From a virus (taxonomy: Duplodnaviria > Caudoviricetes): 53,200 nucleotides of DNA. Both the position numbers and the translations under genes were made by a program. The DNA is taken from IMG/VR virus record IMGVR_UViG_3300027787_000002, positions 1-53,200 of that record; one strand, given 5' to 3'. Positions 2,229-52,653 of this stretch are shown here, one piece after another. The notes under the pieces are model-generated. The model saw nothing but the letters and a program-made list of their open reading frames with translations. It did no database searches and was not told the DNA's origin. Position 1 is the first letter of the stretch, and each line of letters begins with the position of its first letter.

Positions 2229-2505
2229 GTGTTGCGCGGGATGTTTCCGACGAGGAAGCCGCCCGTGTTGTACTCAGAGACCACAGGGAGATGAGGAAAG
2301 AGATGGATGAAGAGCAGTACGTGAACTTGCAAGTGACTGCCACGATGAATGGAGAGCAGTACACAGCACTAGTGGCTGCGATGACGCACTGGTGCGAAGA
2401 GCATCCTGAAGAACGAGATGCCGTTCGACAGATCAGGTCGATCGAGTTCGTAAGGTCAAGGTAATGCTCTGGAGAAGTGCGTTGCCACCGTTAGAGGGAG
2501 GACCG

Positions 2506-2952
2506 ATGAACGATGAAGAGCTCCTGAGGAAGTACCCAGGCCTCAGGCATGAGGTAGAGACACACCCTGATGACGAGTTAGGTAAACGACTGAACGAGGA
2601 AGCCTTTACGGTGCTCAAAGAGCACCAGGAAGCCAAGAGAGTTGAGAGGAACACAGCGATGAGAAGTCTACGGACCAGCAAGACTCGACACTCGACGGGT
2701 GAGGGCACAGACTACGAGCTCTACCACCTTAACGACCTGTCGAAGCATCACGCGTTGACGTTGATCGATGCACTCTCTCAGGCACGTGCGAACTGCGTTG
2801 ACCAGATCCGCAAGGCTGAAGACGTCAACGCCTTGGCACAAGGTGAAGGTAACAACGAGATGAGGTTGGTCGAGGACCTCAAGCATCTGGGTAGCATCCT
2901 TGACGCGATCTGCACCATGGAGTACAACCTACGAGACACCGTGGAGTTCTGA
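2506..2952 (+). CDS. Hypothetical protein
   Basis: GGAGGA RBS before MNDEELL. Confidence 0.65.
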   Translation: MNDEELLRKYPGLRHEVETHPDDELGKRLNEEAFTVLKEHQEAKRVERNTAMRSLRTSKTRHSTGEGTDYELYHLNDLSKHHALTLIDALSQARANCVDQIRKAEDVNALAQGEGNNEMRLVEDLKHLGSILDAICTMEYNLRDTVEF

Positions 2953-3127
2953 TGGCGATGAAGGGTGTGACGTTCGGTGTTACCATTCGATTGGTAGTGC
3001 CGAGTGACAACGAGTACGACACGGAGAGCTACGCCGATGCGATGGCGTCACTCATTCGGCACGATGCCGTTGTTGGCAGTAAGTTCGGGCAGTTCGATGG
3101 ACTACAGGACGTGGAGGTAACACCACT

Positions 3128-3325
3128 ATGACTCTACTAGAGTGGTGGGCAGCTGGGTCAGCAGTCGTTGGAGCTGCGTGGGGATTTGTGAGACTGTGTC
3201 GGCGTGCACCAGGCTGCACGTTCATATCCTCGAACGTTAGGGGTATTACCAGTACTCCACTGTATGTGGAGGAGGAACACCTTCGTAAGTTCCCTTACGA
3301 GGACCAGCTTAACAGGGAGATGTGA
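3128..3325 (+). CDS. Small membrane-anchored hypothetical protein
   Basis: GGAGGT RBS, hydrophobic N-terminus. Confidence 0.55.
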   Translation: MTLLEWWAAGSAVVGAAWGFVRLCRRAPGCTFISSNVRGITSTPLYVEEEHLRKFPYEDQLNREM

Positions 3326-3501
3326 TGGAAGCGAAGAGGTTGTCGACCCTCATTGGGGAACTTACTGAACTCCTCGGACGGTTCGGGGACGGATACGTCG
3401 AGGTGTTCCCGGAGACATTGCGCAAAGACGGATCGGTACCAGTTGCTATTTGGTCCGAGGATGACGAGCAGTACTACCTTGAGGTCGAAGTCCAGGACTG
3501 A
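3325..3501 (+). CDS. Small acidic hypothetical protein (58 aa, not in ORF track)
   Basis: TGATG overlap; reads MEAKRLSTLIGEL...EVEVQD*. Confidence 0.55.
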   Translation: MEAKRLSTLIGELTELLGRFGDGYVEVFPETLRKDGSVPVAIWSEDDEQYYLEVEVQD

Positions 3502-3579
3502 TCTCACTGGCCGAGTTAGCGGTGCGACCCTCTTACTTTGAGTAGGCGGGCGCACTGCTAGTTCTACCAAGGAGGAGAG

Positions 3580-3828
3580 ATGGCAAGGAACCTATCGTCG
3601 GCTTCATACCTAACCATGGAGCCCAAGAACCCCACACCAGATGAGCCTAGGTACGCTGACGGAAGAGCGAAGCCTACCCAGATCCCTATACGGACTGCAG
3701 CCACGTGCGATCACGAGGCCTATGTTTGTCTGACCATGGAGTGTATCAAGGCATGGCAGGAGGATCACATTATCCACTTCGAGAGAACGACTGCAGGTCG
3801 ACGGTTCAAGAGGGAGCTAGGACTGTGA
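3580..3828 (+). CDS. Hypothetical protein
   Basis: Strong AAGGAGG RBS. Confidence 0.65.
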   Translation: MARNLSSASYLTMEPKNPTPDEPRYADGRAKPTQIPIRTAATCDHEAYVCLTMECIKAWQEDHIIHFERTTAGRRFKRELGL

Positions 3829-4385
3829 GGGCACTACTGTATCGGCCGAGCTGGCAGGCTCTACGAGTGTCGTTCCTGAAGGAGAATAGGAACGATGGTG
3901 GCTGGACTACAGCTACCGGTACAGAAGCTAACCTGTACAGACTGGTCGACTACGTGTCTCTCAACGCAGAGACGGTCGACGAGTTCGCGCTCGAGGCCAA
4001 GTCGATGGGTTACGGAGTACGTCAAGAGGAAGCAGTGAGGCTGTACCGAGCCATTAACTGTCTCAACGCCGTTCGCATGGGCAACTCGGGACAAGGTGAT
4101 GCAGGCTCATCGCGTGACCAGGTTGTCCTAGAGGTTAGGGACAGCTTCCAGCGCATGCAGACTCCACGCTACCACGAGTTCCTTACGTACGCGTCTGTAA
4201 GGTGGGACTGGAGAGTGGTCAAGCAGGAGCTTCAGGTCGAGTACGACAAAGGCAACATGCATGGGAGGTTCGACGAGATCTACAAGAGCCTAGAGAGCAG
4301 GTCCAGGAAGAGCCTACATATGGCTACCAGGCCAGAGCTCAGAACGTTCTTGTCACTGATGGACGAGGTTCGTAATAGTGGTTAA
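3825..4385 (+). CDS. Hypothetical protein
   Basis: GTGA overlap start within the 226-aa ORF. Confidence 0.6.
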   Translation: MRALLYRPSWQALRVSFLKENRNDGGWTTATGTEANLYRLVDYVSLNAETVDEFALEAKSMGYGVRQEEAVRLYRAINCLNAVRMGNSGQGDAGSSRDQVVLEVRDSFQRMQTPRYHEFLTYASVRWDWRVVKQELQVEYDKGNMHGRFDEIYKSLESRSRKSLHMATRPELRTFLSLMDEVRNSG

Positions 4386-4692
4386 GCCCAAGCTACCATG
4401 GCTGAAGATGGTTGTATACTTCCCCTTCTGCCTGGTGAACGTAGCTGTTGGCCTGTTCTTCCTGTTCCTACCACCAGTAGGACTCCTCATCGGGATACCT
4501 ATGCTAGTCCTTGCGTGCTGGCCTTATGCCACGTGGCTGTCGAAACACATCCACGCGGGCGTAGCTTACGCAGACAGGGACCAGGGGCTACTCGACGAGG
4601 AAGAGGTTCCGTGGGAGCAAGCATCGGAGCTTAGCGAGGACGAGATCATGGACATCATTATCAACCAATCAGGGAGAGGTCGCAATGAGTGA
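4378..4692 (+). CDS. Membrane protein (two TM segments, acidic tail)
   Basis: Long hydrophobic stretch at aa 8-52. Confidence 0.65.
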   Translation: MVKPKLPWLKMVVYFPFCLVNVAVGLFFLFLPPVGLLIGIPMLVLACWPYATWLSKHIHAGVAYADRDQGLLDEEEVPWEQASELSEDEIMDIIINQSGRGRNE

Positions 4693-5074
4693 CGAAGGTG
4701 TCACCCTAAACATCATCATGAAAGACTATGCTACACCAGTCCTCAGCCAACTGATCGTCGACTGGTTCATGTGGCTACCAGTTAACGAACAGATCTCGTG
4801 GCTAAAGTCCATCGGCATCGAAGCCTCCAGACGTGAAGAGTACATCGGCGCCATGAATGATCAAGCTCAACACCCTGTGGTGCTTCCGTCAGCAACGCCC
4901 GCGCCGGCGCCTGCTACTGGATCGATCCCAGTCATGACGCAGCACGTCGACATCACTCCAACGATGGCACTCAAGGGAGGACCTCACGTCAAGGGTCGAC
5001 CCAAGCCACAGCCTGGGAGCAACCTATTGGCCTCTCCTACGGTCGACTTAACGAAGCGTAAAGGTAAGTCCTAG
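4685..5074 (+). CDS. Hypothetical protein
   Basis: 129-aa ORF overlapping the previous stop. Confidence 0.6.
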   Translation: MSDEGVTLNIIMKDYATPVLSQLIVDWFMWLPVNEQISWLKSIGIEASRREEYIGAMNDQAQHPVVLPSATPAPAPATGSIPVMTQHVDITPTMALKGGPHVKGRPKPQPGSNLLASPTVDLTKRKGKS

Positions 5075-5136
5075 GTCGTGCTCGCGCTGTCACCTCATCG
5101 AGGTCGGCAGTGCTGGTTCTACCAAGGAGGAGACCA

Positions 5137-5430
5137 GTGGTAAGCACAACCAGGCTCGTCTGCGCAGAACGTGGACACATGTGGCCTAACATCAAGGACG
5201 CGCCATACTTCCAGGAGAGAGCAGATAGACGCCTGGGGATCAAGTACGTGTGGGTTCTTCGCCTAGCGTGCGAGCGTCCGGGTTGCGACCGAGAGAGGAT
5301 CGACAAGTGTATGCCTCATACACTTAAGCTCATCACTCGTTCATACAAGGGTGAGTACGAGAAGATGGGTAGAGTGTCTAGAGAGACGCTTCGCAAGGAG
5401 CTCGTCAAGAGGGAAGGGAAGAAGTTGTGA
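5137..5430 (+). CDS. Hypothetical basic protein with Cys/His motifs
   Basis: AAGGAGG RBS before GTG 5137. Confidence 0.6.
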   Translation: MVSTTRLVCAERGHMWPNIKDAPYFQERADRRLGIKYVWVLRLACERPGCDRERIDKCMPHTLKLITRSYKGEYEKMGRVSRETLRKELVKREGKKL

Positions 5431-5771
5431 CCAAGTTCCCGGATATTGGTACAGGAGAGAACATGTCTAGCCAGCTAGACCGTGCGGCGCAGTACAAGAA
5501 CGCCGTCTTCGAGTTGAAGGTCCGAGCTCGAGAAGATGACAACTACCAGAAGCAATGCGTGGGCTGTAAGGAGAAGATCTTCTTTGTTGAAGGCGAGCAC
5601 GCAGTAACGCATGGTCACATCTACTCTCGCGCAGGAATGTCCGAGTGGTCTATATCTCTGCTCTGTGAGTACTGCTTCGACAAGATCATGAAGGAGCCTG
5701 AAGAGGTCGAGCCCGAGGAAGTCAACAATGGCTTGGACTTCGGTCCAACGACTGATCCGTTCGATTGCTAA
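5427..5771 (+). CDS. Hypothetical Zn-finger protein (CxxC...CxxC)
   Basis: CVGC and CEYC motifs. Confidence 0.6.
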   Translation: MTKFPDIGTGENMSSQLDRAAQYKNAVFELKVRAREDDNYQKQCVGCKEKIFFVEGEHAVTHGHIYSRAGMSEWSISLLCEYCFDKIMKEPEEVEPEEVNNGLDFGPTTDPFDC

Positions 5772-5807
5772 GTAGAGACCGATCCAAAAATATCTTCGAG
5801 GTCTCGC

Positions 5808-5837
5808 TTGATGGGTACTACTGGACTACGCTATAAT
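5808..5837 (+). promoter_or_regulatory. Housekeeping-sigma promoter
   Basis: TTGATG-18 nt-TATAAT. Confidence 0.7.
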
Positions 5838-5895
5838 AGAAGTAGAGCAAAAACATAAGGGTGTTTTTGCTTCCGGATCACAACAGGAGAACATC

Positions 5896-6510
5896 ATGGC
5901 ACGTAGAGGAAGAGACAACACTGTGACTGAAGAGACCACCACCGTGGAAGAGTTCCAGCCGGAGCTCGAGGTCGACGGCGAAGGCATCGAAGAGGTCGAC
6001 GTTCCGGCCGAGGACGACGAAGCCGAAGTCATCGCCAGCACCGAAGGCAGTGACACGTCGGAAGAGAAGCCGGCCAAGGAGCCTGCTGCTCCGAAGCGTG
6101 GCGACCTGCCCGAGGGGTTCATCACGCCGGTCGCGTTCGCCAAGGTGCTCAGCCAGCCGCTCGACGGTAACGCCGAGAACCTGGACCCGAGCAACTGGCG
6201 ATACACCCACTCGAAGTCCGGTGACCACGTCGTCGCGCCCCAGATGGTGTACTCGTACATCCGGTCGGCGAAGGACGGGAAGAACCCCCTCGCCACTCAG
6301 ACCGTGACCGACAGCAACGGCGTCCAGCGCGAGAACATCCTGGTCCTCGCCGATGCGCTGGCGTGGTGGGACGCGAAGGCCAAGCGTACCGCGGCTTCTG
6401 CCGAGAACGCGAAGGCCAAGGCTGAGAAGAAGGCGGCCAAGCCCGAAGCCACCGAGACCGCTTCCGCGACTGACGCTGCCCCCGTCGGCGAGGTCGAGGA
6501 AGCCGAGTAG
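5896..6510 (+). CDS. Putative DNA-binding protein: acidic N-terminus, Xis/MerR-like HTH core, Lys/Ala-rich tail
   Basis: ITPVAFAK...PQMVYSYIR...ALAWW pattern; GC-rich codon third positions; own promoter and downstream stems. Confidence 0.55.
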   Translation: MARRGRDNTVTEETTTVEEFQPELEVDGEGIEEVDVPAEDDEAEVIASTEGSDTSEEKPAKEPAAPKRGDLPEGFITPVAFAKVLSQPLDGNAENLDPSNWRYTHSKSGDHVVAPQMVYSYIRSAKDGKNPLATQTVTDSNGVQRENILVLADALAWWDAKAKRTAASAENAKAKAEKKAAKPEATETASATDAAPVGEVEEAE

Positions 6511-6618
6511 TCCAGGGAGGTCCCTCAAGGCTAGTTGAGGCCTGGACTACTCAAGAAGAGCCGGTAGGTAAGTACCAGAGGTCCCCTCATACCTCCGAGG
6601 AACACCTACCGGCTCTTC
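6507..6618 (+). terminator. Two tandem stem-loops (terminator or structured RNA)
   Basis: GTAGTCCAGG/CCTGGACTAC and AAGAGCCGGTAGGT/ACCTACCGGCTCTT inverted repeats, followed by CCTTT. Confidence 0.65.
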
Positions 6619-6628
6619 CTTTACACAC

Positions 6629-6658
6629 TTGATATACCTTGTAGGACTATAGTATAAT
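6629..6658 (+). promoter_or_regulatory. Housekeeping-sigma promoter
   Basis: TTGATA-18 nt-TATAAT. Confidence 0.7.
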
Positions 6659-6687
6659 TGTATTACACCGCAACAGAAAGAAGTGCA

Positions 6688-6900
6688 ATGGAAATAACCG
6701 TAAAGCCGGAAGACTCCGAAGTGGTGAGTGATATGGTAGATGCTACCATATCAGCACTCGGAGACGCGAAGACACATGCGGAGTCATGTAAATCCGTCAA
6801 CTCAGTGAAGATGTTGACGGAAGTAGTTGCTGACTACGACTACCGTATCAAGGTCCTACAGGATATCAAGGGCCAACTGGAGGCGCAGAAGGATGTCTGA
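6688..6900 (+). CDS. Hypothetical protein
   Basis: ORF downstream of promoter, start MEITVK. Confidence 0.6.
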   Translation: MEITVKPEDSEVVSDMVDATISALGDAKTHAESCKSVNSVKMLTEVVADYDYRIKVLQDIKGQLEAQKDV

Positions 6901-7303
6901 GCAGGAAATGGAAGCGCCAGTAGCTGTCTTCCGTCACGCTGTAACGGTATACATGGAGATGGCAGCTCAAGGTACAGTCATCCAGGCCGAGGATAGCAAC
7001 ATGCTAGTGTACGAAGGTAAGCTCGTGGAGCTTGTCGTCGACACTTGCGGGCTTAGTGTACCGTACTACACCAAGGTGACTCAGGCCCTCAAGGGTATGG
7101 GTTGTGCTCGTCAGCTACGACGTGGTGGCGGGTCCAGTCCTTCGCAGTGGGAACTGATTAGGGAACCAACCCCAGAGCTTTGGGAGGCTTACCTGAACAG
7201 CGCTGACCCTGAAGACACTACCGAGTACGCACCAATGCAGACGGTGCGAGATCTAAGTACCCGAATCAAGCGGATCGAGAAGGCGATTGGGATCATCACA
7301 TGA
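6893..7303 (+). CDS. Putative winged-helix DNA-binding protein
   Basis: Helix...L-x-x-x-G...RRGGG wing-like pattern; GGAGG RBS. Confidence 0.45.
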   Translation: MSEQEMEAPVAVFRHAVTVYMEMAAQGTVIQAEDSNMLVYEGKLVELVVDTCGLSVPYYTKVTQALKGMGCARQLRRGGGSSPSQWELIREPTPELWEAYLNSADPEDTTEYAPMQTVRDLSTRIKRIEKAIGIIT

Positions 7304-7647
7304 GTGACGAGGTAGACGAAACGTTCGAAGATCATAAGCGCTGTCCAAGGTGCAAAGAGCCTGGCGAGGACAGTGGATCGGTAGCTGCACCCAATGCACC
7401 TAAGGGTACCAAGCTGCATACCATCTACTGTCGAAACGAGAGGTGTAAGTGGTTCAACACGCCTTGGCTCGTTCAGGTCAATCCTGACGGTAGCGTTCCG
7501 AAGCCTGTAGACCACAAGAAGCGACCCAAGATGTATGTCGGCTTCGAGGGTCATGATCAGATGGCTAACCAGATCAGGGAAGCGATGGAAGCCGACCGAG
7601 CAGCATCACTGCTGCGCGGATCAGAAGTACGACGGAGGCCTCGTTGA
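7300..7647 (+). CDS. Zn-ribbon protein
   Basis: CPRC...CRNERC. Confidence 0.6.
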   Translation: MSDEVDETFEDHKRCPRCKEPGEDSGSVAAPNAPKGTKLHTIYCRNERCKWFNTPWLVQVNPDGSVPKPVDHKKRPKMYVGFEGHDQMANQIREAMEADRAASLLRGSEVRRRPR

Positions 7648-7767
7648 GTTTGCGACCCAGGGACGTTGAGCTTGTGCTTATCGTCCTTGGGGTACTCACA
7701 TGGCTACTCATCCTGTTCTGCGTGCTCTGGATGGTAGTAGACGTCTTTAAGAACTTAGCTTGAGAGT

Positions 7768-7823
7768 AAGTCTCTCCGTATGTCTAATAGAGTCTCTTGG
7801 AGTCTAATAAGAAATTCCCCTAG
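7768..7823. repeat. 56-bp dispersed intergenic repeat, copy 1
   Basis: 49/56 identical to 26755-26810; four phased GTCT units. Confidence 0.85.
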
Positions 7824-7911
7824 GGCTCGTAGTAACTATCACCTAGAGGATCTTGCTAGTTAGACTCTTAGCTAGACTGAGCACAGAGGGTGTGCAGAAG
7901 ACCACAGGGAG

Positions 7912-8124
7912 GTGAGCTTGCTGACGTTGATGGCAGTTTCAGAGTACGCTAAGGCTAGAGGAATTAGTCCTCAGCTGATCCATTACTACATCCGTGAGGA
8001 GAAGCTCGAGGTCGACAACTGTGAGTGCGGTCGTCGATGCGTACGTGTAGAAGAGGCAGACAAGTTCTTCCGAGAGAAGGGGAAGATCAAAGATGAAGGT
8101 GTGGCCTCGTCTAGCCCCACTTGA
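7912..8124 (+). CDS. Small Xis/MerR-like helix-turn-helix protein
   Basis: MAVSEYAKARGISPQLIHYYIREEKL...RCVRVEEA fits an excisionase-type HTH. Confidence 0.65.
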   Translation: MSLLTLMAVSEYAKARGISPQLIHYYIREEKLEVDNCECGRRCVRVEEADKFFREKGKIKDEGVASSSPT

Positions 8125-8374
8125 CATGAGTACTGATCAGGTTTGTCCTGAATGCTTCTCTCGGTACATCATGTACAATGGTAACTACATGTGTGAGGGA
8201 TGGGAGTACAGACAGGACTCTAGTGACCCAGGCTGCCGATGGGCTATGCCAGATACACGTGACATGTCTGAGCTCTTCATTGCCTGCTACAGTTCACTAA
8301 TGCGTAACAGAGGACAAGAGCCTGAGCAACGGGTTATCGACGAAGCAAGAAGGGATACACGAGGCGATGTGTAG
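8093..8374 (+). CDS. Hypothetical Cys-rich protein
   Basis: CPEC...C...C; start uncertain. Confidence 0.55.
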   Translation: MKVWPRLAPLDMSTDQVCPECFSRYIMYNGNYMCEGWEYRQDSSDPGCRWAMPDTRDMSELFIACYSSLMRNRGQEPEQRVIDEARRDTRGDV

Positions 8375-8526
8375 TCATAACTTGGTCGACGTCTGGGGAG
8401 ACAGTCCGACTCCTCTGGCAACCGAGATTACCAAGGACGAGGCACGAGAGATCATCAACGTCGACAACGTCAGTAGGTACATGCAGTGCGCCAACCCGTC
8501 CTGTGGAGTTGAGATCGAGGAGTAAC

Positions 8527-10101
8527 ATGACCGAAGGGGAGAAGTTCCAGCTCAAGAAGTTCCAGGTCGAAGACGTTATCAGGATCGCCAAGGCAGGTAA
8601 CGGTGCTATCGGTTCGGAGATGGGTACGGGGAAGACCCACGTAGCGATCGAGCTGGACAACATCTGGTACAGGACTGCTAAGGTCAAGCTCCCGACACTG
8701 GTGATCTGTCCCATCAACGTCTTCTCGTCCTGGGTAAGTAAGTACAAGTGGCAGTCACCTGAGACAGACGTGTTCGTGATCGACCGTAAGAACCGTACGG
8801 CATTCATTCAGGCCATCAAGGAGGGTAAGGCCGATGTCTACATTATGCATTGGGACGCACTCAGGCTTCTTCCAGAGCTCGCCAAGATCAAGTTCAATAC
8901 CGTCATCGCGGATGAGGCTCATCGTGCCTCGAATCGTAAAGCGCAGGCGACCCAGGCACTCAAACGTATCCCAGCCGTACATAAGCTGGCTATGTCTGGC
9001 ACTCTTAGTGGCGATCAGCCTCAAAATCTCTGGTCGATACTAAACTGGCTCTGGCCTAAGGTTTACAGGTCCTTCTGGAGGTTCGACAAGCAGTACGTCG
9101 TCCGCAAGGTAGACCCTAGGGGCTACACGACAGTAGTCGGTGTACAGAACGCACAGTCCCTAAAGAAGGAGATGAGCCCATGGTTCGTTCGTCACCTGAA
9201 GAAGGAGAAGTGTTGTCCTCACCATCCCGAAGGAGTAATGTCCTGGCTCCCCGACAAGACGTACGATCGAGTCTGGGTAGAACTCTCAACAGAGCAGCGC
9301 AGGATCTACAAGCAGATGAAGGACCAGATGGTAGCTTGGGTGAACGAGCACGAATCGTCACCGCTAGTTGCTTCAGTTGCCGTTGCTCAACTAACTCGGC
9401 TGAGTCAAATTGCACTCGCTACACCAGAGATCCGTACGGAGACCAAGCGCAGGAGGGTTAAGCGCTGGGCAGATGCTACAGGCTCATTGATCAAACCAGA
9501 GATTAGGGCTGACAGCGACGGCAAGCATCGAGCATACTACCCTCCAGGCTCTAAGCAGATTCAGGTACTAGAGCCATACCAGGCTCAGGTAGTCTACCTC
9601 AAGCTGCCTAGCTCCAAGTTGGAAGCCGTACTTGAGATCCTGAAAGAGCACCCCGAGAAGAAGTTCGTCCTGTGGTCAGCTTCGAAGAAGATGTGCTACC
9701 TGATGCAACAGGCTCTCCTGGAGCACAAGATCAAGTCTCACGTCCTAAGCGGAGATACACCACAGGGACAGCGTGACAACATGTTGGCGAACTGGCAGCA
9801 CGATGACTACCAGGCGTTCATTGGTGTCATCTCTGCAGCTGGCGAAGGCATCGATGGACTACAGAACACGACCGATACGGCTATCTTCCTAGATCGTGAC
9901 TGGTCAACGAAGGCGAACAAGCAGGCCGAAGATCGGTTGCACCGACCAGGGCAAGTGAATAACGTCAACACCATCGACATCATGGCCAAGGATACTATTG
10001 ACCTAGGTCGGCATACACGTCTAGCCGAGAAGTGGGAATGGATCAAGGCCATCTTGGGCGACAAGGTGAACCAGGAGACAGGGGAGATGAAGGCAGCATG
10101 A
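8527..10101 (+). CDS. SNF2-like (SF2) DNA helicase
   Basis: Motifs EMGTGKT, DEAH, SGT, QAEDRLHRPGQ. Confidence 0.92.
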   Translation: MTEGEKFQLKKFQVEDVIRIAKAGNGAIGSEMGTGKTHVAIELDNIWYRTAKVKLPTLVICPINVFSSWVSKYKWQSPETDVFVIDRKNRTAFIQAIKEGKADVYIMHWDALRLLPELAKIKFNTVIADEAHRASNRKAQATQALKRIPAVHKLAMSGTLSGDQPQNLWSILNWLWPKVYRSFWRFDKQYVVRKVDPRGYTTVVGVQNAQSLKKEMSPWFVRHLKKEKCCPHHPEGVMSWLPDKTYDRVWVELSTEQRRIYKQMKDQMVAWVNEHESSPLVASVAVAQLTRLSQIALATPEIRTETKRRRVKRWADATGSLIKPEIRADSDGKHRAYYPPGSKQIQVLEPYQAQVVYLKLPSSKLEAVLEILKEHPEKKFVLWSASKKMCYLMQQALLEHKIKSHVLSGDTPQGQRDNMLANWQHDDYQAFIGVISAAGEGIDGLQNTTDTAIFLDRDWSTKANKQAEDRLHRPGQVNNVNTIDIMAKDTIDLGRHTRLAEKWEWIKAILGDKVNQETGEMKAA

Positions 10102-10337
10102 GTGAAGAGCCTGAGGGTGCCACTACAGAGTTCGGTAGCTGCATTGCCGATCACGACTACTTCGTCATCATTGGTGTAACAGACGTCGACAAGATGAGGG
10201 ACGAAGCCTTTCGACGTCAGCAGGGCGACTACTACGCCACGACGGAGTCGTCCGTACTACACCATCATCGGTTCGACGAGGAGTGCGACAAGGACCCGAG
10301 CAAGCACGAGGTCTGGTTAAGGAAGGACCAGTTGTAA
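10098..10337 (+). CDS. Hypothetical protein
   Basis: ATGA overlap with helicase stop. Confidence 0.55.
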   Translation: MSEEPEGATTEFGSCIADHDYFVIIGVTDVDKMRDEAFRRQQGDYYATTESSVLHHHRFDEECDKDPSKHEVWLRKDQL

Positions 10338-10903
10338 TGCCTACAAGCGGTAACTTCGGATACGATGGCAACAATGGTGGAGGAGAACCAGACTGGGATC
10401 TGTATGGACCTAACGATACAGCCAAGCCGGAACCGACTCAGCATGCACTAGAACGTCAGAGAGTCATCTGGCCAAGTCAGGACTACCTGTTCGCACCTTC
10501 GTTCAAGGTACCTGATCGACTGAAAGGTGCTCCCCCGGGACACTACGTAGTGGAGGCAAACGAAGTGATCAGTGCAGATACTGCAGAGAGTCTGGAACGT
10601 CAGGCAGAGCGACTGCTGGAACGAGCCAGAGAGGTAAGAAGGAAGTACGACCGTTTCGGAGAGGACGACTTCCCGGATGGTGCAATCATTGTCTTCGACA
10701 AGGTGTTCCATGAGTACAACGGACGCCAGCTACACAAACCGTCGAAGCCGTACCACTACGCTGCCATCAAGATGAACGGTCTGTGGTCTACTACGGGTCC
10801 GAGGTCGCCGAAGAGCTTCACCTGGACCGAACTGATCCGGTGGATGGGTGACGGCGTTCAGGAGATCTACTACGTCTCAGAGATGGAGAAGTTCGTCGGA
10901 TGA
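10337..10903 (+). CDS. Hypothetical protein
   Basis: TAATG overlap; 188 aa. Confidence 0.65.
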   Translation: MPTSGNFGYDGNNGGGEPDWDLYGPNDTAKPEPTQHALERQRVIWPSQDYLFAPSFKVPDRLKGAPPGHYVVEANEVISADTAESLERQAERLLERAREVRRKYDRFGEDDFPDGAIIVFDKVFHEYNGRQLHKPSKPYHYAAIKMNGLWSTTGPRSPKSFTWTELIRWMGDGVQEIYYVSEMEKFVG

Positions 10904-11048
10904 TTCGAATCGTGAGATGGACTTGGACTAACTGGACCTTCGGAGTCTGGTATGCCAAGTTTGGTAGTCGTCGCCACTTCGGTATCGACATCGGACCGTT
11001 TGAGGTCGTCTGGAAAGACAAGTACGTACCCAACAGGAGGATCCGCTA

Positions 11049-11456
11049 ATGGTTGAGTACCTAGAGAGTGGTGAACCGATACCGGATGGTCGTGTCACTA
11101 TCGAGATCGGTCTGGAGCTAGCGTACGTTTGGGATCCGGGCAACCGTCACTTCATGAACTATACACCACCTCACGAGCCGAAGCAGTCATATGTCTTCTG
11201 GTTCAAGGACCTCGATAGGTTACAGGAGACACAGAACTACTTCTGCATCATCTTCCCCAACGACAAGGGTGACAGAGCCAACACTCGTATGCAGATTCCT
11301 TGGGGGCAGATCCTATCGATCCAGCTCAACAAGAACTCCGACGAGTTCGTAGCAGCTGCTAGAGCCTACCACGGCAACCTACCCGAAGAGTTCTTCGACA
11401 CACGTTACGGAGGTACCTGCATTGCCTGTGCGAGTCGTAGTAGAGTTCGAGGATGA
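11049..11456 (+). CDS. Hypothetical protein
   Basis: AGGAGG RBS. Confidence 0.6.
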   Translation: MVEYLESGEPIPDGRVTIEIGLELAYVWDPGNRHFMNYTPPHEPKQSYVFWFKDLDRLQETQNYFCIIFPNDKGDRANTRMQIPWGQILSIQLNKNSDEFVAAARAYHGNLPEEFFDTRYGGTCIACASRSRVRG

Positions 11457-11829
11457 CAAAGATGCTAAGCAGTTCGTCAGAGACGCCCTGAACACGTATG
11501 AGCTCGACCACTACAGGTTCAAGGTTACGGCTGTATACAAGAAGCCTACCCTGTTCTGTAATCCGGACGACGGTCACCGTGGACGTAAGAGAACCACAGG
11601 GTGGACTCGCGGACGTAAGTGGGGTTGGTGGGTCTGTGGTGTTTGTGGTAGGCCTACGAAGCGTTGGGCCACTGGAGACATCTGGCAATACTCCATGGGT
11701 TACAATCTGTTACCACCATCAGTCTCATCACTCGAACGAGGTACAAGGAGTACACACGAATGGACAGAAGAAGAGTTGGGTTTGGAGTCTTGCGACTTGC
11801 CGGAGGACTCGTCCTCATCTTCGGACTAG
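11422..11829 (+). CDS. Hypothetical Zn-binding protein
   Basis: WWVCGVCGRP motif; start uncertain. Confidence 0.55.
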   Translation: MPVRVVVEFEDDKDAKQFVRDALNTYELDHYRFKVTAVYKKPTLFCNPDDGHRGRKRTTGWTRGRKWGWWVCGVCGRPTKRWATGDIWQYSMGYNLLPPSVSSLERGTRSTHEWTEEELGLESCDLPEDSSSSSD

Positions 11830-11964
11830 AGACCTTGGTGTACATGTACGTCACTCAGGGTCTCTGGTACACCATCTTCGCCTGCGTTATGGGGGGCATT
11901 TATGGATGGAACATCGACAACCTATATCGAGGTCGCGTCATCAAGAACCTCTGGAGGAGAAGCA

Positions 11965-12405
11965 ATGGGTAAGGTAGTTACGATCGAGTTCGACACGGAA
12001 GAGTCAGCGCAGAACTTCTACGACGCTTACAAGGACTTACCTGATAGGCTGCCAGCCTTCAAGAGCATCGAGATGGACTGGCATACCCCACACGAGCTGT
12101 ACGAGCACCGCTACACCCTCTTCAGGGCTCTGGTGTTCAGTAGCCACAGGTTGCGGAGCTGGATGTCGAAGCAGCACCACGACGGAACGATGTTCAAGGA
12201 CTCATTCATCGTGGGGATTAACCTTCCAAAGGGTCCTATCACCTACCACCTCCCCATGAGTTGGTGGCCTCACTTCGTAGGCATTACGGAGTACGAGAAG
12301 GCGCCTGAATGGGATGGCTGTACTCCTGAGCAGGGCCTCGTTCGACTCAATGAGACCATCGACTCCATCCAAAGATTCGATGCCTTACAGAGGGAGAGGT
12401 CATGA
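11965..12405 (+). CDS. Conserved phage protein (APEWDG motif)
   Basis: ELYEHR...SKQHHDG...ITYH...APEWDG, a pattern I recognise from phage hypotheticals. Confidence 0.6.
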   Translation: MGKVVTIEFDTEESAQNFYDAYKDLPDRLPAFKSIEMDWHTPHELYEHRYTLFRALVFSSHRLRSWMSKQHHDGTMFKDSFIVGINLPKGPITYHLPMSWWPHFVGITEYEKAPEWDGCTPEQGLVRLNETIDSIQRFDALQRERS

Positions 12406-13797: not shown

Positions 13798-13800
13798 TAA

Positions 13801-41651: not shown

Positions 41652-43778
41652 CTAGGTATGAGATGTTATATTGAAGCGTGCAGGATTGGCTGTAATACTT
41701 CCGTCAGGACCTATAATGGTAACGGAGACTGAACCACTCTTACCAGTAACATACTGCGGACGACCTTGGGAAGTACTCAAGTAGGTCGCAGTAGTAACAC
41801 TAGGTGAAACTGTTGCGCCTGCCTGAGCGATGCGCCCCAGCGTGGAAGAGACCACAGGGCTTGGGGAGGTAATGGCTAGTACATTACCGGTCTTGCCTAG
41901 AACAGCTACAGTGGTAACGCTAGCATTGACTACCTGCGATACACCAGTGACAGCTGTAACATTAGCTGGAGGGTTGAGTACGGGACTTACAGTAGCTGTG
42001 ACGCTACCAAACTTACTGACAAAGCCACTTACGGTTAGTGAGGCATTGACAACTTGAGCTACTGACAACCCTGCAGCAGCTACGAATCCTGATGCAGTAA
42101 GGGAAGCACTCTCGGTAAGCGTAGTCCCAGCAAAGAGCGAAACCGAACCTGAGACAGTGGAACTAGCTGTGACGGTTTGATTTACTGCTCCGAAGGCCCC
42201 TACTACGCCTGCAGTTATTAGTGACGCTGTTTCGGTAGATGTGACGTTTACGAACCTAGCAACTACAGCTGCAGTAGTAATGGCAGGCGAGATAGTAGGA
42301 CTAGCGTTTCCTACGACCCCGACAATACCACTTATGGTGGAGCTAGGAGTAACGGTCTCCGATACATTCCCGAATATAACTGTGCCAACAGAAGCTGTAA
42401 TGGTCGTAACGGGTCCAACGGTCTGACTTACGTTACCTACCTTACCGGCTACTCCTGTGACCGTAGAGCTGTCGTTGATGGTTAGGGAAGCTGCTCCACT
42501 TAGTGCGGTTGTTGCAGCAGTAGTAACTACAGGACCCTCGGTAGCTGTTACACTACCTACCTTAGTAACAAAACCAGAAACGGTCGAGCTCGCAGTAACT
42601 GTTTGTGATACGTTACCTACTGCACCAGCCACACCAGTATTAGTTGAGCTGTCAGTAACAGTTAGCGATACGTTACCGAACTTAGCAACAACGCCTACGA
42701 TAGTTGAACTAGCAGTAGTTGTAGCACTTACGTCACCAAAGCGAGCACCAGCACTAATGTTCGTGGTAGCAGTAATAGTCTCGGAGACATTACCTACTGC
42801 ACCTACAACTCCGGTATTAGTCGAGGCTGCTGTTACGGTAAGGTTGACATCACCCGACCTAGCTACGACACCGGTGTTAGTGGAAGCAGCAGTTACAGTT
42901 GCACTTACATCTCCAACCTTACCGACAACGCCGGTAATGGTAGAGCTGGCAGTTACCGTTAGGGTAGCTGCTCCGGATCTTGCTACAACACCTGTGTTCG
43001 TGGAGCTATCGGTAATGGTAGCACTAACGTTGCCTACCTTACCTACAACACCCGTGATGGTACTGCTTGCAGTAACAGTAGCGCTTACATCTCCAGGTAT
43101 AGTAAACCCTGGTAGCAGATACCCAACCAAGCCAGTTCGACCGACATCAGCTGTTACAGTCGTAGCAGTAACCGAGCCTGTAGCGGTAGCAGTTGTCTGC
43201 GCCAGCGTAGCAATGGTGTTGGCTCCTGCAATGTCTACCTGTTCGGTAAACCCTGTAGGAGGAGTCCAACCACCAGCATTGAAGTTAGTACCCATGAAGA
43301 GTACCAGACAGTTATTAGAGCTAGGCGTAAGCGTTGCAACTGCAGGTGTTACGTTGCTAGACCCTACACTGTCCGTGGTAGCAGTATTAACTGGACTACC
43401 AAACGGATCACCTGAGGTTGTGCAAGCAGTAAACCTTTGAGCAAAGCCCTCAGCCCATACAGATCCTGTCCAGGAGAAGTCGTAGGTGCCAGAGTCAGCT
43501 CCTGAGGGACGCTTGTAGTAAATGTAATGATTATGAAGGTGTGATCCTGCACATGTAACAGTCGTCTTAAGAGTAAAACCTGCAGGAGGTGTTACAGCTG
43601 CAGTAGACTCCTTATACAAACCAATGATAATTACTTCCCCAGGTGTCCCTGTTACACCTGAAGGTACAGGTATACTAGCTGTGGTCCTATTCGCGCCTGC
43701 TAATGTCCCAGTTGCTTGAGGGATGGGAGTAGTAAGTATGATGTTACCAGGACTTCGTAGCAGCAGGAGCAAACTCAC
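41652..43778 (-). CDS. Fibre-like protein with about 22 copies of a 20-aa repeat
   Basis: GNVSATVTASSTITGVVGKV-type tandem repeats after a globular N-terminal domain. Confidence 0.75.
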   Translation of the reverse strand: MSLLLLLRSPGNIILTTPIPQATGTLAGANRTTASIPVPSGVTGTPGEVIIIGLYKESTAAVTPPAGFTLKTTVTCAGSHLHNHYIYYKRPSGADSGTYDFSWTGSVWAEGFAQRFTACTTSGDPFGSPVNTATTDSVGSSNVTPAVATLTPSSNNCLVLFMGTNFNAGGWTPPTGFTEQVDIAGANTIATLAQTTATATGSVTATTVTADVGRTGLVGYLLPGFTIPGDVSATVTASSTITGVVGKVGNVSATITDSSTNTGVVARSGAATLTVTASSTITGVVGKVGDVSATVTAASTNTGVVARSGDVNLTVTAASTNTGVVGAVGNVSETITATTNISAGARFGDVSATTTASSTIVGVVAKFGNVSLTVTDSSTNTGVAGAVGNVSQTVTASSTVSGFVTKVGSVTATEGPVVTTAATTALSGAASLTINDSSTVTGVAGKVGNVSQTVGPVTTITASVGTVIFGNVSETVTPSSTISGIVGVVGNASPTISPAITTAAVVARFVNVTSTETASLITAGVVGAFGAVNQTVTASSTVSGSVSLFAGTTLTESASLTASGFVAAAGLSVAQVVNASLTVSGFVSKFGSVTATVSPVLNPPANVTAVTGVSQVVNASVTTVAVLGKTGNVLAITSPSPVVSSTLGRIAQAGATVSPSVTTATYLSTSQGRPQYVTGKSGSVSVTIIGPDGSITANPARFNITSHT

Positions 43779-47348: not shown

Positions 47349-48830
47349 TTACTTTGAGCCGGAACGGTCGGTTCCAGCATTGCCGGCGGGGAGTTGTGCC
47401 TTCGCTGGTGCCTGACGCGGAGGCCCTGCCTTTGGTGCCTTTCCTGCCCCAGGCTTCCCAGCCTCAGCTTCACCAGGTGCTTGTGGTGTCTCTGTCTTCC
47501 GGATGGTTGCTTCATCCAAAGGAGGCAGGTCCATTTCTTCACGGATGTTCTTCTCGAGTACGTCATCAGGCTGAATGATACCAGCTCCGACGAAGTTCCG
47601 AATAGCAAAGCTCATTGTACGCCAGTCAGCGGTCTCACCAATGCGCCGAGCCCTCAGGTGTGGGTACTTCTTTACACCTGAGAAGTTGTAGTCGACAAGT
47701 TCCTTGATGAGGTAGTCGTTGAACGTCTGGCATACAATATCCGCAATGAATCTAGTGGCTTTAAGGAACAGGTCGAGACTAGTATCCTGATTGCCTCCCT
47801 CAGACAGGAAGGAGGCTAGAATGGACTTTTCAATTTGCTTGTCGTGGTGGTCAATGCTCTTTAGGCAATCAACAGGCTGCCCTTCGAGCTTGAGCATGAT
47901 CAGTTCCCACATTGGGGGCAGGACGATGTGGGCACGCTCATTGGTACGAAGGTTCCTACCCATATTCTCAGCCAAAGCACGGTCATTCGCAGAGAAACCG
48001 GGAGGAAGCGTAATCATGGGGATACCGATACCGTGACGCTCTTTCTGAATGGCATCGATTTTGTACAGCGTCTCTTTGTAGTACCAGTGCTTGTAGGGGG
48101 TTCGCAGAAGCGACATCCCCTCGATGTTACCTGCCTCCTTATCGAACGTAAAGACCAGCATCTTCTTGATCGGAATCGTCACGTCGTTCATGAAGGGATT
48201 AGTCGAGGGCCACAACGTGACAGCCTTGGGTCCGCCGTTCTCGTCGTAGTGCCACTCCTTGACATCCATAGGATGCCGAGGGCCAAGCTTCTTAAGGACC
48301 GTACGCATACGGCCCTCAACCATCCTGTTCTCCCAGACCTTCTCGTACATGTAGTAACCGAACTCACACATCAGCAAAGCTTCCTGGAGTATTTGGCTCC
48401 AGGAAATGCTCATCTGTTCTGTGAAGCAGTCCCATACGAAATCGGCAATTCGCTTATCCTTAAGCCGATCACCACCAGGCTCCATGAACCAACGAGCAGC
48501 CAAAACGGGAGTCTTAACCAGCCGGAGAGTGCCACGTACAGTTCCGTCACTACGACGCATCTGGTCATACTTCTGGAGACCCTTAATGCCTTGAAGGTCA
48601 CGGTTGTACTCCGCCCGAATGAAGGAAGTGAAAGGACTAGGCGAGCTAGTACCTAGTTCCCTTAGGTCGACATCCCTAACAATGGGTTCACCGAATGCTC
48701 TAGGCGTCACAACCATGAAGGGCTCGACACCGTCGTCGCTAACGATCGACACTAGCTCGAACTTGTCCATGACTTCAGACAACGTAGAGACTTCGCGGAA
48801 GCCTGACGCAGTATCCACAGGGCTAACCAC
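47349..48830 (-). CDS. Portal protein (Mu gp29/DUF935-like)
   Basis: Follows TerL; FGY...EKVW, G.SLLR..Y..W, ERHGIGIP. Confidence 0.9.
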   Translation of the reverse strand: MVSPVDTASGFREVSTLSEVMDKFELVSIVSDDGVEPFMVVTPRAFGEPIVRDVDLRELGTSSPSPFTSFIRAEYNRDLQGIKGLQKYDQMRRSDGTVRGTLRLVKTPVLAARWFMEPGGDRLKDKRIADFVWDCFTEQMSISWSQILQEALLMCEFGYYMYEKVWENRMVEGRMRTVLKKLGPRHPMDVKEWHYDENGGPKAVTLWPSTNPFMNDVTIPIKKMLVFTFDKEAGNIEGMSLLRTPYKHWYYKETLYKIDAIQKERHGIGIPMITLPPGFSANDRALAENMGRNLRTNERAHIVLPPMWELIMLKLEGQPVDCLKSIDHHDKQIEKSILASFLSEGGNQDTSLDLFLKATRFIADIVCQTFNDYLIKELVDYNFSGVKKYPHLRARRIGETADWRTMSFAIRNFVGAGIIQPDDVLEKNIREEMDLPPLDEATIRKTETPQAPGEAEAGKPGAGKAPKAGPPRQAPAKAQLPAGNAGTDRSGSK

Positions 48831-50756: not shown

Positions 50757-50810
50757 TTCTTGCTCCCAACCGCGTCCGTGTTTATATAGAGCACCACAGG
50801 GCGAACCGGC

Positions 50811-50897
50811 TTAGTAGCCTCCGCCTTTGGGTTTCTTCGTGCCCTTTGATGGCTTCGGCATCTTTACGGAAGCCTTCTTTCCACCCTTCTTAGCCAC
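50811..50897 (-). CDS. Lys-rich 28-aa peptide (not in ORF track)
   Basis: GTG overlapping the TerS stop; VAKKGGKKASVKMPKPSKGTKKPKGGGY. Confidence 0.45.
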   Translation of the reverse strand: MAKKGGKKASVKMPKPSKGTKKPKGGGY

Positions 50898-51309: not shown

Positions 51310-51315
51310 CACACA

Positions 51316-51343
51316 CCTCCTTACCCTTATTATACAGTAGTCC
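51316..51343 (-). promoter_or_regulatory. Putative late promoter/leader
   Basis: GGACTACTG-TATAAT-AAGGGTAAGGAGG. Confidence 0.6.
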
Positions 51344-51454
51344 CAGACGGGAACACCTACCTCTCGTATATGCAGGTAACACATGCCCCCAAAAAACTGG
51401 CGCGTATGCCCTACGGGTTATATACGTGTGTGTCTGTGTCCACGGAATATAGTT

Positions 51455-51685
51455 ACGTAGGTGTACGTACATGTACACATTGTACTAGACATTACATGTT
51501 GGTCTGGTCATCACCAGGGGGTAGGACATGTACAGGGTGGTCTGGTCATGTCTAGGGGATAGGGATAGAACATAGTAGTCTGGACACGTCGACATGTCAG
51601 GACTAGTCTAGGTATGTCTAGGCCGACATGTCTGGACTAGTCCTATAGGGCCTACACCCCTAAATCTTACGTAAAGATTTAGGCT
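51455..51685. repeat. Palindrome- and GTCT-rich non-coding region
   Basis: Repeated ACATGT, GACATGTC, GACTAGTC and GTCT(A/G)G; CCTAAATCTT/AAGATTTAGG inverted repeat. Confidence 0.7.
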
Positions 51686-51803
51686 TAATTTACGCATATA
51701 AGTTAAGCTTGTTTTAGGCGTAATTTGGGTTTTTCTTACGATATGCGCTACTATAATTATGTTATAAGAGAAACACACACACACTCACAGAATCGAGCAG
51801 ATC

Positions 51804-52109
51804 ATGAACGAGATCGCGAACTACTTCACCGCTTCTACGTACTCCCCGTACGGAATGTGCAAGATCGTCAACAAGATCCTTCACGACATCGATTCCGAAA
51901 TCAAGGAACTGCCGGCACCGATGTTCTACACGTACGTGAAGAAGGGTTTCATTCCGTCAGAGAACAAGGTCGTCACTCGCGAACACGCTATCGAGTGGAC
52001 CGTGAAGTACTTGACGAAGCGTTTCGGAATCACGGAAGCTCCGAGCACTGTTGAAGCTGTGAACATGAACGAGATCAACGAAGCGCTCGAGCAGTTCGCA
52101 GCAGAGTAA
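51804..52109 (+). CDS. Putative Xis/MerR-like DNA-binding protein
   Basis: SPYGMCKIV...PAPMFYTYVKKG...HAIEW resembles 5896 and 7912 products; TATAAT at 51752. Confidence 0.5.
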   Translation: MNEIANYFTASTYSPYGMCKIVNKILHDIDSEIKELPAPMFYTYVKKGFIPSENKVVTREHAIEWTVKYLTKRFGITEAPSTVEAVNMNEINEALEQFAAE

Positions 52110-52116
52110 CGCAACA

Positions 52117-52157
52117 ACAAGATCCGGATCTTGTACAACACAAGATCCGGATCTTGT
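52117..52157. repeat. Two tandem perfect 18-bp palindromes ACAAGATCCGGATCTTGT
   Basis: Copies at 52117-52134 and 52140-52157. Confidence 0.92.
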
Positions 52158-52293
52158 AACATCCTTTAGTAAGGACCCAAAGCGGTCAGGCAGTACCAAG
52201 ACAGCCAGGTGGGACGTGTACCATTGCCACGCCCAGGTTGGAACGTTGCCTCGCGGCCCTACGTGGACGTACCTTGACAACTCCATAGCGACA

Positions 52294-52653
52294 CTACTCC
52301 ACAGGGCTCCCTGTATCTAGGAACTGACGGAGCACCTGAGCGTACGCTTCCTGTTGGGCGATCTCGACTTCCCTCAGGGCGTCCGCCAGGGAAAGTCTAC
52401 CGGCCCTCCTACGGGCAAACTCCGCCTTACGTTCCATGACGGCCTTCCAGCCCTTCTGTGCCACGTAGTTACAAGCTCGACAGTAGCTCTTGGGTTGACC
52501 GTACTGCTTGCCAGTATCGGGATCGCCCCACCAGATGTCCTTCATGGACGCACCATCGAGTACGGGCCTAGTGTAGAACCCGGAGATGTGTATCCACTCT
52601 TCACATAGTCCGCACTCGATACGTCCGTAATCATCGACCTCTCGTCTCTTCAT
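52294..52653 (-). CDS. Zn-finger protein (CxxC...CxxC), probably leaderless
   Basis: CGLC...F...SYCRAC; ATG 6 nt after TATAAT, no RBS. Confidence 0.6.
   Translation of the reverse strand: MKRREVDDYGRIECGLCEEWIHISGFYTRPVLDGASMKDIWWGDPDTGKQYGQPKSYCRACNYVAQKGWKAVMERKAEFARRRAGRLSLADALREVEIAQQEAYAQVLRQFLDTGSPVE

Follow-up and report, generated by a model that had tools for sequence, protein, structure and literature searches.

The window analysed here is the complete IMG/VR virus record IMGVR_UViG_3300027787_000002 (53,200 bp), and our subject is a short asymmetric DNA word, the 11-mer AGACCACAGGG with its core CCACAGGG, which recurs throughout the window on both strands. The final 127 bases of the record are identical to the first 127, which indicates a circular assembly with a unique genome of 53,073 bp; 127 is a frequent assembler word size, and the terminal repeat might therefore stem from overlap in the assembly. 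The virus is a siphovirus, uncultured and with a complete genome, that carries 7-deazaguanine genes. On the plus strand (1–27,957), small early genes come first and a block for replication and recombination comes next. This block encodes a 744-aa primase-helicase (17146–19380) with a RepB-primase N-terminal domain, a family A DNA polymerase, a SNF2 helicase, a PD-(D/E)XK (Cas4-like) exonuclease, Sak4, an SSB-like protein, QueC, QueD, QueE, GTP cyclohydrolase I, a small HNH_3 endonuclease (26460–26753), and a RuvC-like resolvase. The minus strand (27,894–52,689) carries the lysis, tail, head, portal, and terminase genes. Megablast found no near-identical cultured phage. Protein-level matches of the primase in a phage collection were mostly actinophages. 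Arthrobacter phage Amigo has a replication block in identical gene order and a primase of ~29% identity.

The exact 11-mer occurred eight times in the window (7+/1−), against a mean of 0.02 in dinucleotide-preserving shuffles, none of 100 of which reached eight. The core occurred 18 times (14+/4−), against a shuffled mean of 2.06 (standard deviation 1.48, maximum 6), and the word was the commonest k-mer of the window at k = 8 to 12. Chance was excluded as its source by these shuffles. An earlier annotation made from the letters of the window without database searches (hereafter the sequence-only reading) had placed all eight 11-mers and their strands correctly, including the minus-strand copy at 13277. 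Its core positions were likewise right, but its core total of 17 missed a plus-strand copy at 9760.

We then compared the coding copies with a codon-preserving null, in which synonymous codons were shuffled inside each of 74 hand-picked open reading frames (ORFs) so that proteins and per-gene codon usage were kept. The 13 coding core copies compared with 2.18 ± 1.33 expected and the five coding 11-mers with 0.11, and in neither case did any of 500 shuffles reach the observed count. The enrichment thus persisted under the very null that had been named beforehand as the refuting check, which indicates that codon choice is bent toward making the word. The same null applied to 11 relatives gave 27 sense copies against 4.4 expected and 33 antisense copies against 3.7, and an artefact of codon usage or protein sequence was excluded by the two analyses.

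The relatives were obtained through a primase search of IMG/VR, which yielded 12 related loci. Two of them, G001 (51.9 kb) and G002 (53.3 kb), were collinear with the window over whole contigs, with 65–78% nucleotide identity in the aligned blocks. The word was kept in both, as 11 exact 11-mers in G001 (7+/4−) and six in G002 (4+/2−). Of the window's eight copies, three had an exact counterpart at the corresponding place in G001 and two in G002, several others differed by one or two changes, and some copies were private to one genome. This partial positional retention, together with the private copies, indicates sites that are more conserved than neutral DNA at the given divergence and are yet turning over. 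Core density was 1.6–6.0 per 10 kb in every primase-related contig, most relatives holding 10–29 copies, whereas a reversed control word occurred 0–2 times per contig and the core density of an unrelated contig (L150) was 0.5 per 10 kb. The enrichment of the word is real, statistically robust, and clade-wide.

An alignment search with a DpdA-like protein of the window, described below, added 80 further loci, from which 23 long contigs were searched and 18 were fetched whole. Among the 22 whole genomes thus available (the window and 21 fetched contigs), 20 were enriched in a word that consists of [C/T]CACA[G/C]G between flanks that differ by lineage. Genomes poor in CCACAGGG were rich in a related word, the forms around the invariant CACA including CTTCCACAGGG, ACTCCACACGG, and ATCTCACAGGAG. 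Four types could be distinguished: type I (AGACCACAGGG / GAACCACAGGG) in seven genomes, type II (CTTCCACAGGG / TCCACAGGGC) in six, type III (AAACTCCACACG(G/C)CC, AACCCACACGG, and AGACCACACGC) in six, and type IV (ATCTCACAGGAG) in one. The CACA centre was constant across all of them, and in some lineages the word spanned 11–16 conserved positions. Its specificity in the window's own group is sharp: genomes G000–G002 hold 25 exact 11-mers, while all 33 single-mismatch variants sum to 23, only one of which alters positions 4–9 (CCACAG). Two genomes, G025 and G029, showed no CACA-type word by three kinds of search. A scan of viral contigs with the 14-mer CAGAGACCACAGGG returned at least 119 stretches; those examined had one match each, mostly in unrelated-looking contigs, which is compatible with chance.

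The copies are distributed over both coding and noncoding DNA. In the window, 13 of the 18 core copies lie within the 74 ORFs, in both orientations, and 93 of 108 copies family-wide fall in ORFs according to a crude ORF call. Intergenic DNA makes up 9% of the window and holds about a third of the core copies. As the sequence-only reading had noticed, some copies stand just ahead of starts, at 2278 before the ATG at 2303, at 7899 before the ORF at 7912/7918, and at 26872 before the ORF at 26885. Such leader copies share the direction of the downstream gene, lie 0–30 nt before the start, and run with their GGG into the ribosome-binding site to give CCACAGGGAGG. Its caveat that three coding copies all read PVVS was also correct (STPVVS at 30729, QRPVVS at 36920, and PSPVVS at 41849).

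The leader copies raise the question of a phage transcription regulator with sites of the L5 stoperator or start-associated type, for which the copies in genes would be secondary or silencing. L5 stoperators are intergenic asymmetric repeats that follow transcription. Actinophages frequently have comparable repeats, described for Microbacterium phages and for cluster K: cluster EC has asymmetric repeats of 18 bp, and clusters EF and K have a start-associated sequence of 13 bp (PMC7302621). The present word resembles these asymmetric 13–18-bp words of 10–30 copies in that its leader copies are aligned with the gene and overlap the ribosome-binding site, fused to GGGAGG, and in its overrepresentation in intergenic DNA. 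Moreover, the leader copies at 2278, 7899, and 26872 correspond between genomes by alignment and others, such as that upstream of the primase gene, by their flanks, and two leaders have a ~60-bp element of GTCTAAT and TTAGAC boxes in common. Unlike the actinophage repeats, which are intergenic and follow transcription, the present copies lie mostly in genes, and both orientations there exceed the codon-preserving null. No repressor or helix-turn-helix protein was found by Pfam at E < 0.001 among 56 ORFs searched. With the spacing results given below, we regard a regulator as an improbable explanation of the word. The contrast with L5 stoperators drawn in the sequence-only reading accordingly applies to the copies in genes and is weaker for the leader subset, in which CCACAGGGAGG is aligned with the downstream gene.

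Next, we focused on the strand on which the word is written. The core was split 14:4 in the window, 13:8 and 11:7 in G001 and G002, and 5:5 in G003. When the 20 word-bearing genomes were oriented by their replication genes (G025 and G029 being excluded from these counts), 200 copies fell on the replication-gene strand and 136 on the opposite one. The strand bias is therefore real but moderate, and one-strand polarity is only partial. Within genes, the same genomes had 112 sense and 137 antisense copies. In the window, ACCACAGG occurred 12 times on the plus strand and 10 times on the minus strand, so that the minus strand bears its own weaker series, and the plus excess consists of the leader and gene copies of the plus block together with the antisense copies of the minus block. 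The earlier statement that copies are mostly on the plus strand whichever way the gene runs was thus right as to independence from transcription and too strong as to strand, since both strands are used. Its suggestion of a polar signal for replication or recombination fared similarly: the signal is dispersed, acts at the level of DNA, and is not explained by codons, protein, or transcription, but its one-strand polarity was overstated.

A signal like the FtsK-orienting polar sequences (KOPS), which the sequence-only reading had also proposed, does not fit this distribution. We saw no orientation switch point of the origin or terminus type in the plus excess, and the absence of a clean switch argues against a KOPS-like role. 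The G/C strand term at fourfold-degenerate sites was close to zero (mean −0.005) and uncorrelated with the strand bias of the word (r = −0.17). With the transcription term removed, the same sites showed A in excess of T on the replication-gene strand in all 20 genomes (0.03–0.14) and again no G/C term; differences among classes of genes, and not replication, may underlie this A excess.

The main new result is that the word is evenly spaced along each strand. Copies were more evenly spaced than random when strands were combined, the largest gap being 5.4 kb in G001 (7.9 expected) and 4.8 kb in G002 (7.7 expected), and far more so per strand. The coefficient of variation (CV) of the gaps was 0.47 on the plus strand of the window and 0.32 and 0.40 on the plus and minus strands of G001; for ACCACAGG it was 0.45 and 0.62 by strand. 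Permuting the strand labels on fixed positions raised plus-strand CVs of 0.47, 0.32, and 0.45 to 0.71–0.88. We tested each genome with its own core word, on strand sets of at least six sites; nine smaller sets, G025, and G029 were excluded. In 30 of the 31 strand sets from 20 genomes the gap CV lay below that of uniform random placement (Stouffer z −7.06), with z < −1.5 in 13. The words had been picked from the same genomes as were tested, by abundance and not by spacing. Among 6000 control 7-mers with 8–17 copies per strand in these genomes, z < −1.5 occurred in 2.1% and the mean z was +0.40, indicating slight clustering. The word itself has 8–17 sites per strand per ~50 kb. Such evenness fits a replication or recombination signal read on one strand better than an operator, since the copies are not clustered at control regions and strand-dependent spacing is not predicted for a plain duplex binder.

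To relate the word to gene content, we compared the word-bearing contigs. They have in common a block of primase, QueC, QueE, FolE, a protein that we call p260, PolA, and HNH genes, with QueD in most and usually a RuvC-like gene; FolE, QueC, and QueE occurred in every word-bearing genome, and a homologue of the HNH_3 protein in all 20. In three contigs (G016, G020, and G021), tblastn with the capsid, portal, and terminase of the window gave no homologue, and the core was nonetheless present in 28, 13, and 21 copies, including copies in opposite-strand genes. These three contigs keep the replication and Que block, an instance of module mosaicism inside the clade. They indicate that the word follows the replication block and not the packaging or host-contacting parts. 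A packaging signal, another suggestion of the sequence-only reading, is accordingly unlikely.

The same association bears on the origin of the word. Uptake sequences such as the DNA uptake sequences of Neisseriaceae and the uptake signal sequences of Pasteurellaceae are 9–12 nt long, occur several times per 10 kb on both strands and in all frames, and vary between lineages on a fixed core. The present word, with 2–6 copies per 10 kb, both strands, all frames, and variants, resembles those of Neisseria and Haemophilus, and phages could have acquired an uptake sequence or another genome signature from their host. Uptake sequences are features of host genomes driven by transformation, whereas these phages appear lytic: PHROG and Pfam scans of the window gave no sign of an integrase or of lysogeny. 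Furthermore, we are not aware of uptake sequences that are evenly spaced on each strand, and the word follows the replication module rather than the tail module. A host-derived word is the least probable of the explanations considered, and we give it very little weight.

More weight is due to a Chi-like signal, although we still consider it unlikely. Under this explanation, a host RecBCD, AddAB, or AdnAB enzyme, or the phage Cas4-type exonuclease together with a helicase, would read one strand at the word; a copy would stop degradation or start recombination, and properly oriented copies a few kilobases apart on each strand would protect ends and feed recombination-dependent replication. Like Chi, the word is strand-specific, independent of transcription, about tenfold enriched, and present inside genes. 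Its core has 8 nt, as does E. coli Chi, and its complement CCCTGTGG loosely resembles GCTGGTGG. The phage encodes a full recombination set (SNF2 helicase, PD-(D/E)XK exonuclease, Sak4, SSB-like protein, and RuvC-like resolvase), and even coverage of each strand would suit a rule that any break be near a site. To our knowledge, however, Chi sites have not been described as evenly spaced, and with 11–16 conserved positions in some lineages the word is longer than any Chi that we know of. Chi is set by a host enzyme and enriched in the host genome. As to the host here, the closest bacterial QueC proteins (42–56% identical) were mostly from Proteobacteria, many of them Alphaproteobacteria, and point to nothing firm. 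The present word instead stays with the phage replication module where the structural, host-contacting module has been replaced, which argues against a host-encoded reader.

We further examined p260 (22618–23397; 250–270 aa in relatives), which was present in all word-bearing genomes. Sequence searches of Pfam, NCBIfam, PADLOC, and PDB matched it to no family. Its structure model (predicted local distance difference test 89.7, predicted template modelling score 0.87) matched Cap10, the DNA preQ0 insertase DpdA (7ui4), and many tRNA-guanine transglycosylases. Judged from this model, p260 appears to represent a compact DpdA subfamily common to at least 80 IMG/VR loci. The region 19361–23400 forms a 7-deazaguanine pathway, in which QueC, QueD, QueE, GTP cyclohydrolase I, and two small genes without assignment precede p260. 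The fold match of p260 and its Que gene neighbours suggest that the phage DNA is very probably modified with 7-deazaguanine.

The word might then be the target or loading site of the DpdA-like transglycosylase, with 7-deazaguanine replacing the G of the invariant TGT in the complement CCCTGTGG, and the copies would serve as strand-specific marks at even intervals, or as points where a tracking modification machine enters. The U-G-U required by bacterial tRNA-guanine transglycosylase is echoed in the invariant TGT(G) at the centre. Word-bearing genomes all carry FolE, QueC, QueE, and the DpdA-like p260, and cultured relatives without 7-deazaguanine genes are without the word, but this co-occurrence is confounded by common descent, and G025 and G029 have DpdA homologues and no word. 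In some phages, 7-deazaguanines number only in the tens to hundreds for every million nucleotides (bioRxiv 10.1101/2023.04.13.536721); by our own arithmetic, 18 sites in 53 kb would amount to ~170 per million if one G were changed per site. The DpdA specificities on record, by contrast, are very short (2–3 nt), phage iggy having a strict GA and CAjan two motifs, and a phage would have no obvious gain from multiplying its own modification sites. We assign this explanation a low probability.

Based on these observations, we tentatively favour a further reading, without placing it above even chances: that the word is recognized by an enzyme which the phage encodes in its replication block and which is specific for one strand, either a nickase or a primase. 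The existence of a reading enzyme, its identity, and its act at the site are all inferred from the sequence patterns. Of the two acts considered, the likelier, though itself doubtful, is a single-strand nick that provides a 3′ end, with the HNH_3 protein as the candidate nickase; Pfam groups HNH_3 with I-HmuI (PMC5714182). The second, rather unlikely when taken by itself, is the initiation of a primer, with the RepB-like primase-helicase as the candidate enzyme.

The nearest described system is the localized nicking of Pseudomonas phage tf and LUZ24-like phages, with T5/BF23 and phiKMV-like phages as further examples. The 46-kb genome of tf (53% G+C) has two convergent transcription units and 14 localized nicks at 5′-TACT/RTGMC-3′, all on the top strand and 11 of them in the left half; its relatives LUZ24, PaP3, and MR299-2 carry the variant TACTATGAC (PMC3517423). 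Both systems consist of a short asymmetric word (9 nt in tf) in many copies (14 sites in tf; eight exact 11-mers and 18 cores in the window), the strand being chosen independently of gene direction and the word varying among relatives. The tf nicks are a known precedent for the proposed recognition site; the complement CCCTGTGGTCT and the tf site TACTGTGAC have only CTGTG in common. The purpose of the sites is enigmatic in both systems, and the site-specific nicks of T5, phiKMV, and tf have been termed enigmatic since the 1960s (PMC3517423). In contrast to the one-strand sites of tf, crowded in its left half, the present copies are split 200:136 and are even on each strand; moreover, tf is a podovirus of Pseudomonas with proven nicks, whereas the present phage is an actinophage-like siphovirus in which nicks are hypothetical. 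A limited literature search found no report of an evenly spaced, overrepresented phage word and no named phage nickase for such sites.

A priming word would likewise be strand-specific, being read on single-stranded template, and a per-strand spacing of a few kilobases fits the size of Okazaki fragments; the phage primase also has a RepB-primase domain. RepB′ of RSF1010 acts at two structured single-strand initiation (ssi) sites at one origin, and we know of no precedent for a genome-wide priming word of 8–16 nt. The complement of the present word includes TGGTC, which agrees with the T7 gp4 primase site 5′-(G/T)(G/T)GTC-3′ (PMC12839067). The primase words so far described differ in being 3–5 nt long and in needing no enrichment.

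Several points weigh against such an enzyme recognition site. No primase that we are aware of needs a word of 8–16 nt throughout a genome. The nicks of tf, T5, and phiKMV are on one strand only, and those of tf are uneven, whereas the present word is evenly spaced on both strands. The shared CTGTG, a single 5-mer between two short words, is weak evidence, its probability by chance being a few per cent on a rough estimate. Trees of primase, PolA, DpdA, SNF2, exonuclease, Sak4, QueC, FolE, major capsid protein, and portal each required 4–7 changes of word variant, and as the ten trees fit the variants about equally, no gene is singled out as the reader. G025 has homologues of primase, HNH, and DpdA and no recognisable word. 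Five cultured phages with a distant primase homologue (23–29% identical) showed no clear enrichment: word and control-word copies were 3 and 4 in Amigo, 2 and 3 in Molivia, 2 and 4 in CMP1, and 0 and 1 in Nonagon, with a mild excess of 10 over 4 in Yappy. Finally, the pooled statistics overstate independence because some of the genomes are kin (e.g., G000–G002; G018, G019, G022, and G028; G016 and G021).

If a replication or recombination enzyme of the phage does read one DNA strand at the word, selection would retain about one site per 3–6 kb of either strand and thereby keep every stretch of both strands close to one. Point mutation would create new sites at any position where the sequence allows it. 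Such sites would come cheaply at ribosome-binding sites that already read GGGAGG, producing CCACAGGGAGG before genes, and in codon frames for common residues (PVVS, ALW-S/T/K, DHR, TTG, and PQG); such cheap routes would best explain why leader copies are fused to ribosome-binding sites and why coding copies read so few peptides. The flanks of the word would change among relatives along with the specificity of the enzyme, CACA staying fixed.

Three lines of sequence evidence point to selection on the word, namely its excess over codon expectation in genes, its lineage-changing form, and its regular per-strand distances, and the finding extends over a large uncultured clade (20 whole genomes). 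Regular spacing is a measurable signature of a coverage requirement and can be searched for in other phages, and the word variants amount to natural changes of specificity by which the reader protein could be sought. Replication and repair depend centrally on strand-specific words, Chi and primase sites among them. Should the sites prove to be nicks or primer starts, the old puzzle of phage nicks would be tied to a function, the seeding of DNA synthesis; if they are sites of 7-deazaguanine, that modification would have a sequence-specific use.

A bolder version of the recognition site, which we offer as speculation and think quite unlikely, is a private code: a long (8–16 nt), fast-evolving word that would co-evolve with the phage primase-helicase or with a nickase supplying 3′ ends. 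Synthesis would then be seeded on phage DNA only, at one site every few kilobases per strand. The central TGT could possibly also be the point of 7-deazaguanine insertion by DpdA, making it a mark that is read. Genome-wide, self-specific priming or marking of this kind would be undescribed for any virus.

The eight exact copies occupy varied contexts. The copy at 2278–2288 (plus) is intergenic, 14 nt ahead of the ATG at 2303, and is present at the same place in G002 (14727); the frame right after it (2303–2463, 53 codons), too short for the ORF cut-off used, probably represents a genuine small gene. The copy at 7899–7909 (plus) forms the 3′ end of a 264-bp leader and is fused to GGGAGG, with the ORF at 7912/7918 next; the corresponding place in G002 holds GACCACAGGAGG. 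The only minus-strand copy, at 13277–13287, is antisense in the PD-(D/E)XK exonuclease gene, whose coding strand reads ALWSI there; it is exact in G001 and has one mismatch in G002. The same conservation applies to the copy at 21510–21520 (plus), which is sense in the GTP cyclohydrolase I gene (EDHRAK). The copy at 26872–26882 (plus) lies 2 nt ahead of the ATG of the RuvC-like gene (26885–27382), at the end of a leader paralogous to 7648–7911. The remaining three, all on the plus strand, are the antisense PVVS copies: 30729–30739 in the gene for a 606-aa tail protein (exact in G001 and lost in G002), 36920–36930 in a 92-aa gene at 36801–37079 (exact in G002 and with two changes in G001), and 41849–41859 close to the 3′ end of a 708-aa gene at 41652–43778.

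The core also occurs outside the 11-mers at ten places. On the plus strand it lies at 9760–9767 (ACACCACAGGG) in the SNF2 helicase gene, at 11594–11601 (GAACCACAGGG), at 13521–13528 (CTACCACAGGG), at 17043–17050 (GCACCACAGGGAGG) in the intergenic DNA upstream of the primase gene, at 48815–48822 antisense at the junction of the portal and large terminase genes, at 50794–50801 (GCACCACAGGG) in the intergenic stretch 50757–50889, and at 52299–52306 (ACTCCACAGGG). In flanks similar to those of the 17043 copy, G001 (21346) and G002 (30210) hold GCACCACAGGG, a correspondence that rests on flanks and not on alignment. The minus-strand cores lie at 4873–4880 (GCACCACAGGG), at 17498–17505 (AGTCCACAGGG) antisense in the primase gene, where the ALWTL context is the same in G001 and G002, and at 28084–28091 (ACACCACAGGG) in the amidase gene. 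In the weaker series of the minus strand, which spans 698 to 51137, the copies keep CCACAG and differ from the 11-mer at no more than two positions; they start at 698, 1810, 9668, 10779, 17840, 32303, 40720, 50363, and 51127.

The leaders at 7648–7911 and 26754–26884, both of which terminate in the 11-mer, have in common a ~60-bp paralogous element of alternating GTCTCT and GTCTAAT boxes with inverted TTAGAC boxes. Similar elements stand ahead of the same operons in G001 and G002 and, in those genomes, of one tail operon, and the element is probably a phage-specific control region. The top two sigma-70-like promoters of the window (5808–5837 and 6629–6658, with TTGATG and TTGATA, respectively, an 18-nt spacer, and TATAAT) are situated in intergenic gaps of the early region and adjoin no copy of the word, and a scan of positions 1–20000 found 11 promoter-like sites against 9.7 expected; a role of the word as a sigma-70 promoter element is not supported.

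In the window, no known RNA family or tRNA was matched, and the WhiB Pfam model gave no match; a search with the endolysin found no relative in genomes. A metagenome scan with PolA returned two loci only. Five sequencing runs from four studies contain part of the window, all as assembled contigs and none an RNA run.

Several further features were noted. The family A DNA polymerase (23360–25750, 796 aa) combines an N-terminal domain of the uracil-DNA-glycosylase superfamily with a 3′–5′ exonuclease domain. Two long noncoding stretches, 51385–51956 with many short repeats (TGGTCTGGTCAT twice; GACATGT and GTCTAGG boxes) and the A+T-rich 52690–53073 with TATATAC repeats, which separates the divergent gene blocks, could each house an origin, a packaging site, or early promoters. 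G029, a DpdA-bearing contig without primase, HNH, and word, contains a 7-bp tandem repeat of GAGAATA (32494–32615, ~17 units), to which a seemingly evenly spaced k-mer of that contig was traced, and a cluster of eight GGGCGCCC palindromes (20978–22907). A second overrepresented 8-mer of the window, AGGTAACG, has 11 copies on both strands of the unique genome, at 15, 8595, 18240, 21629, 27975, 29493, 29562, 30840, 32266, 42431, and 42611; with the terminal repeat included, the copies number 12, against an expectation of 1.35.

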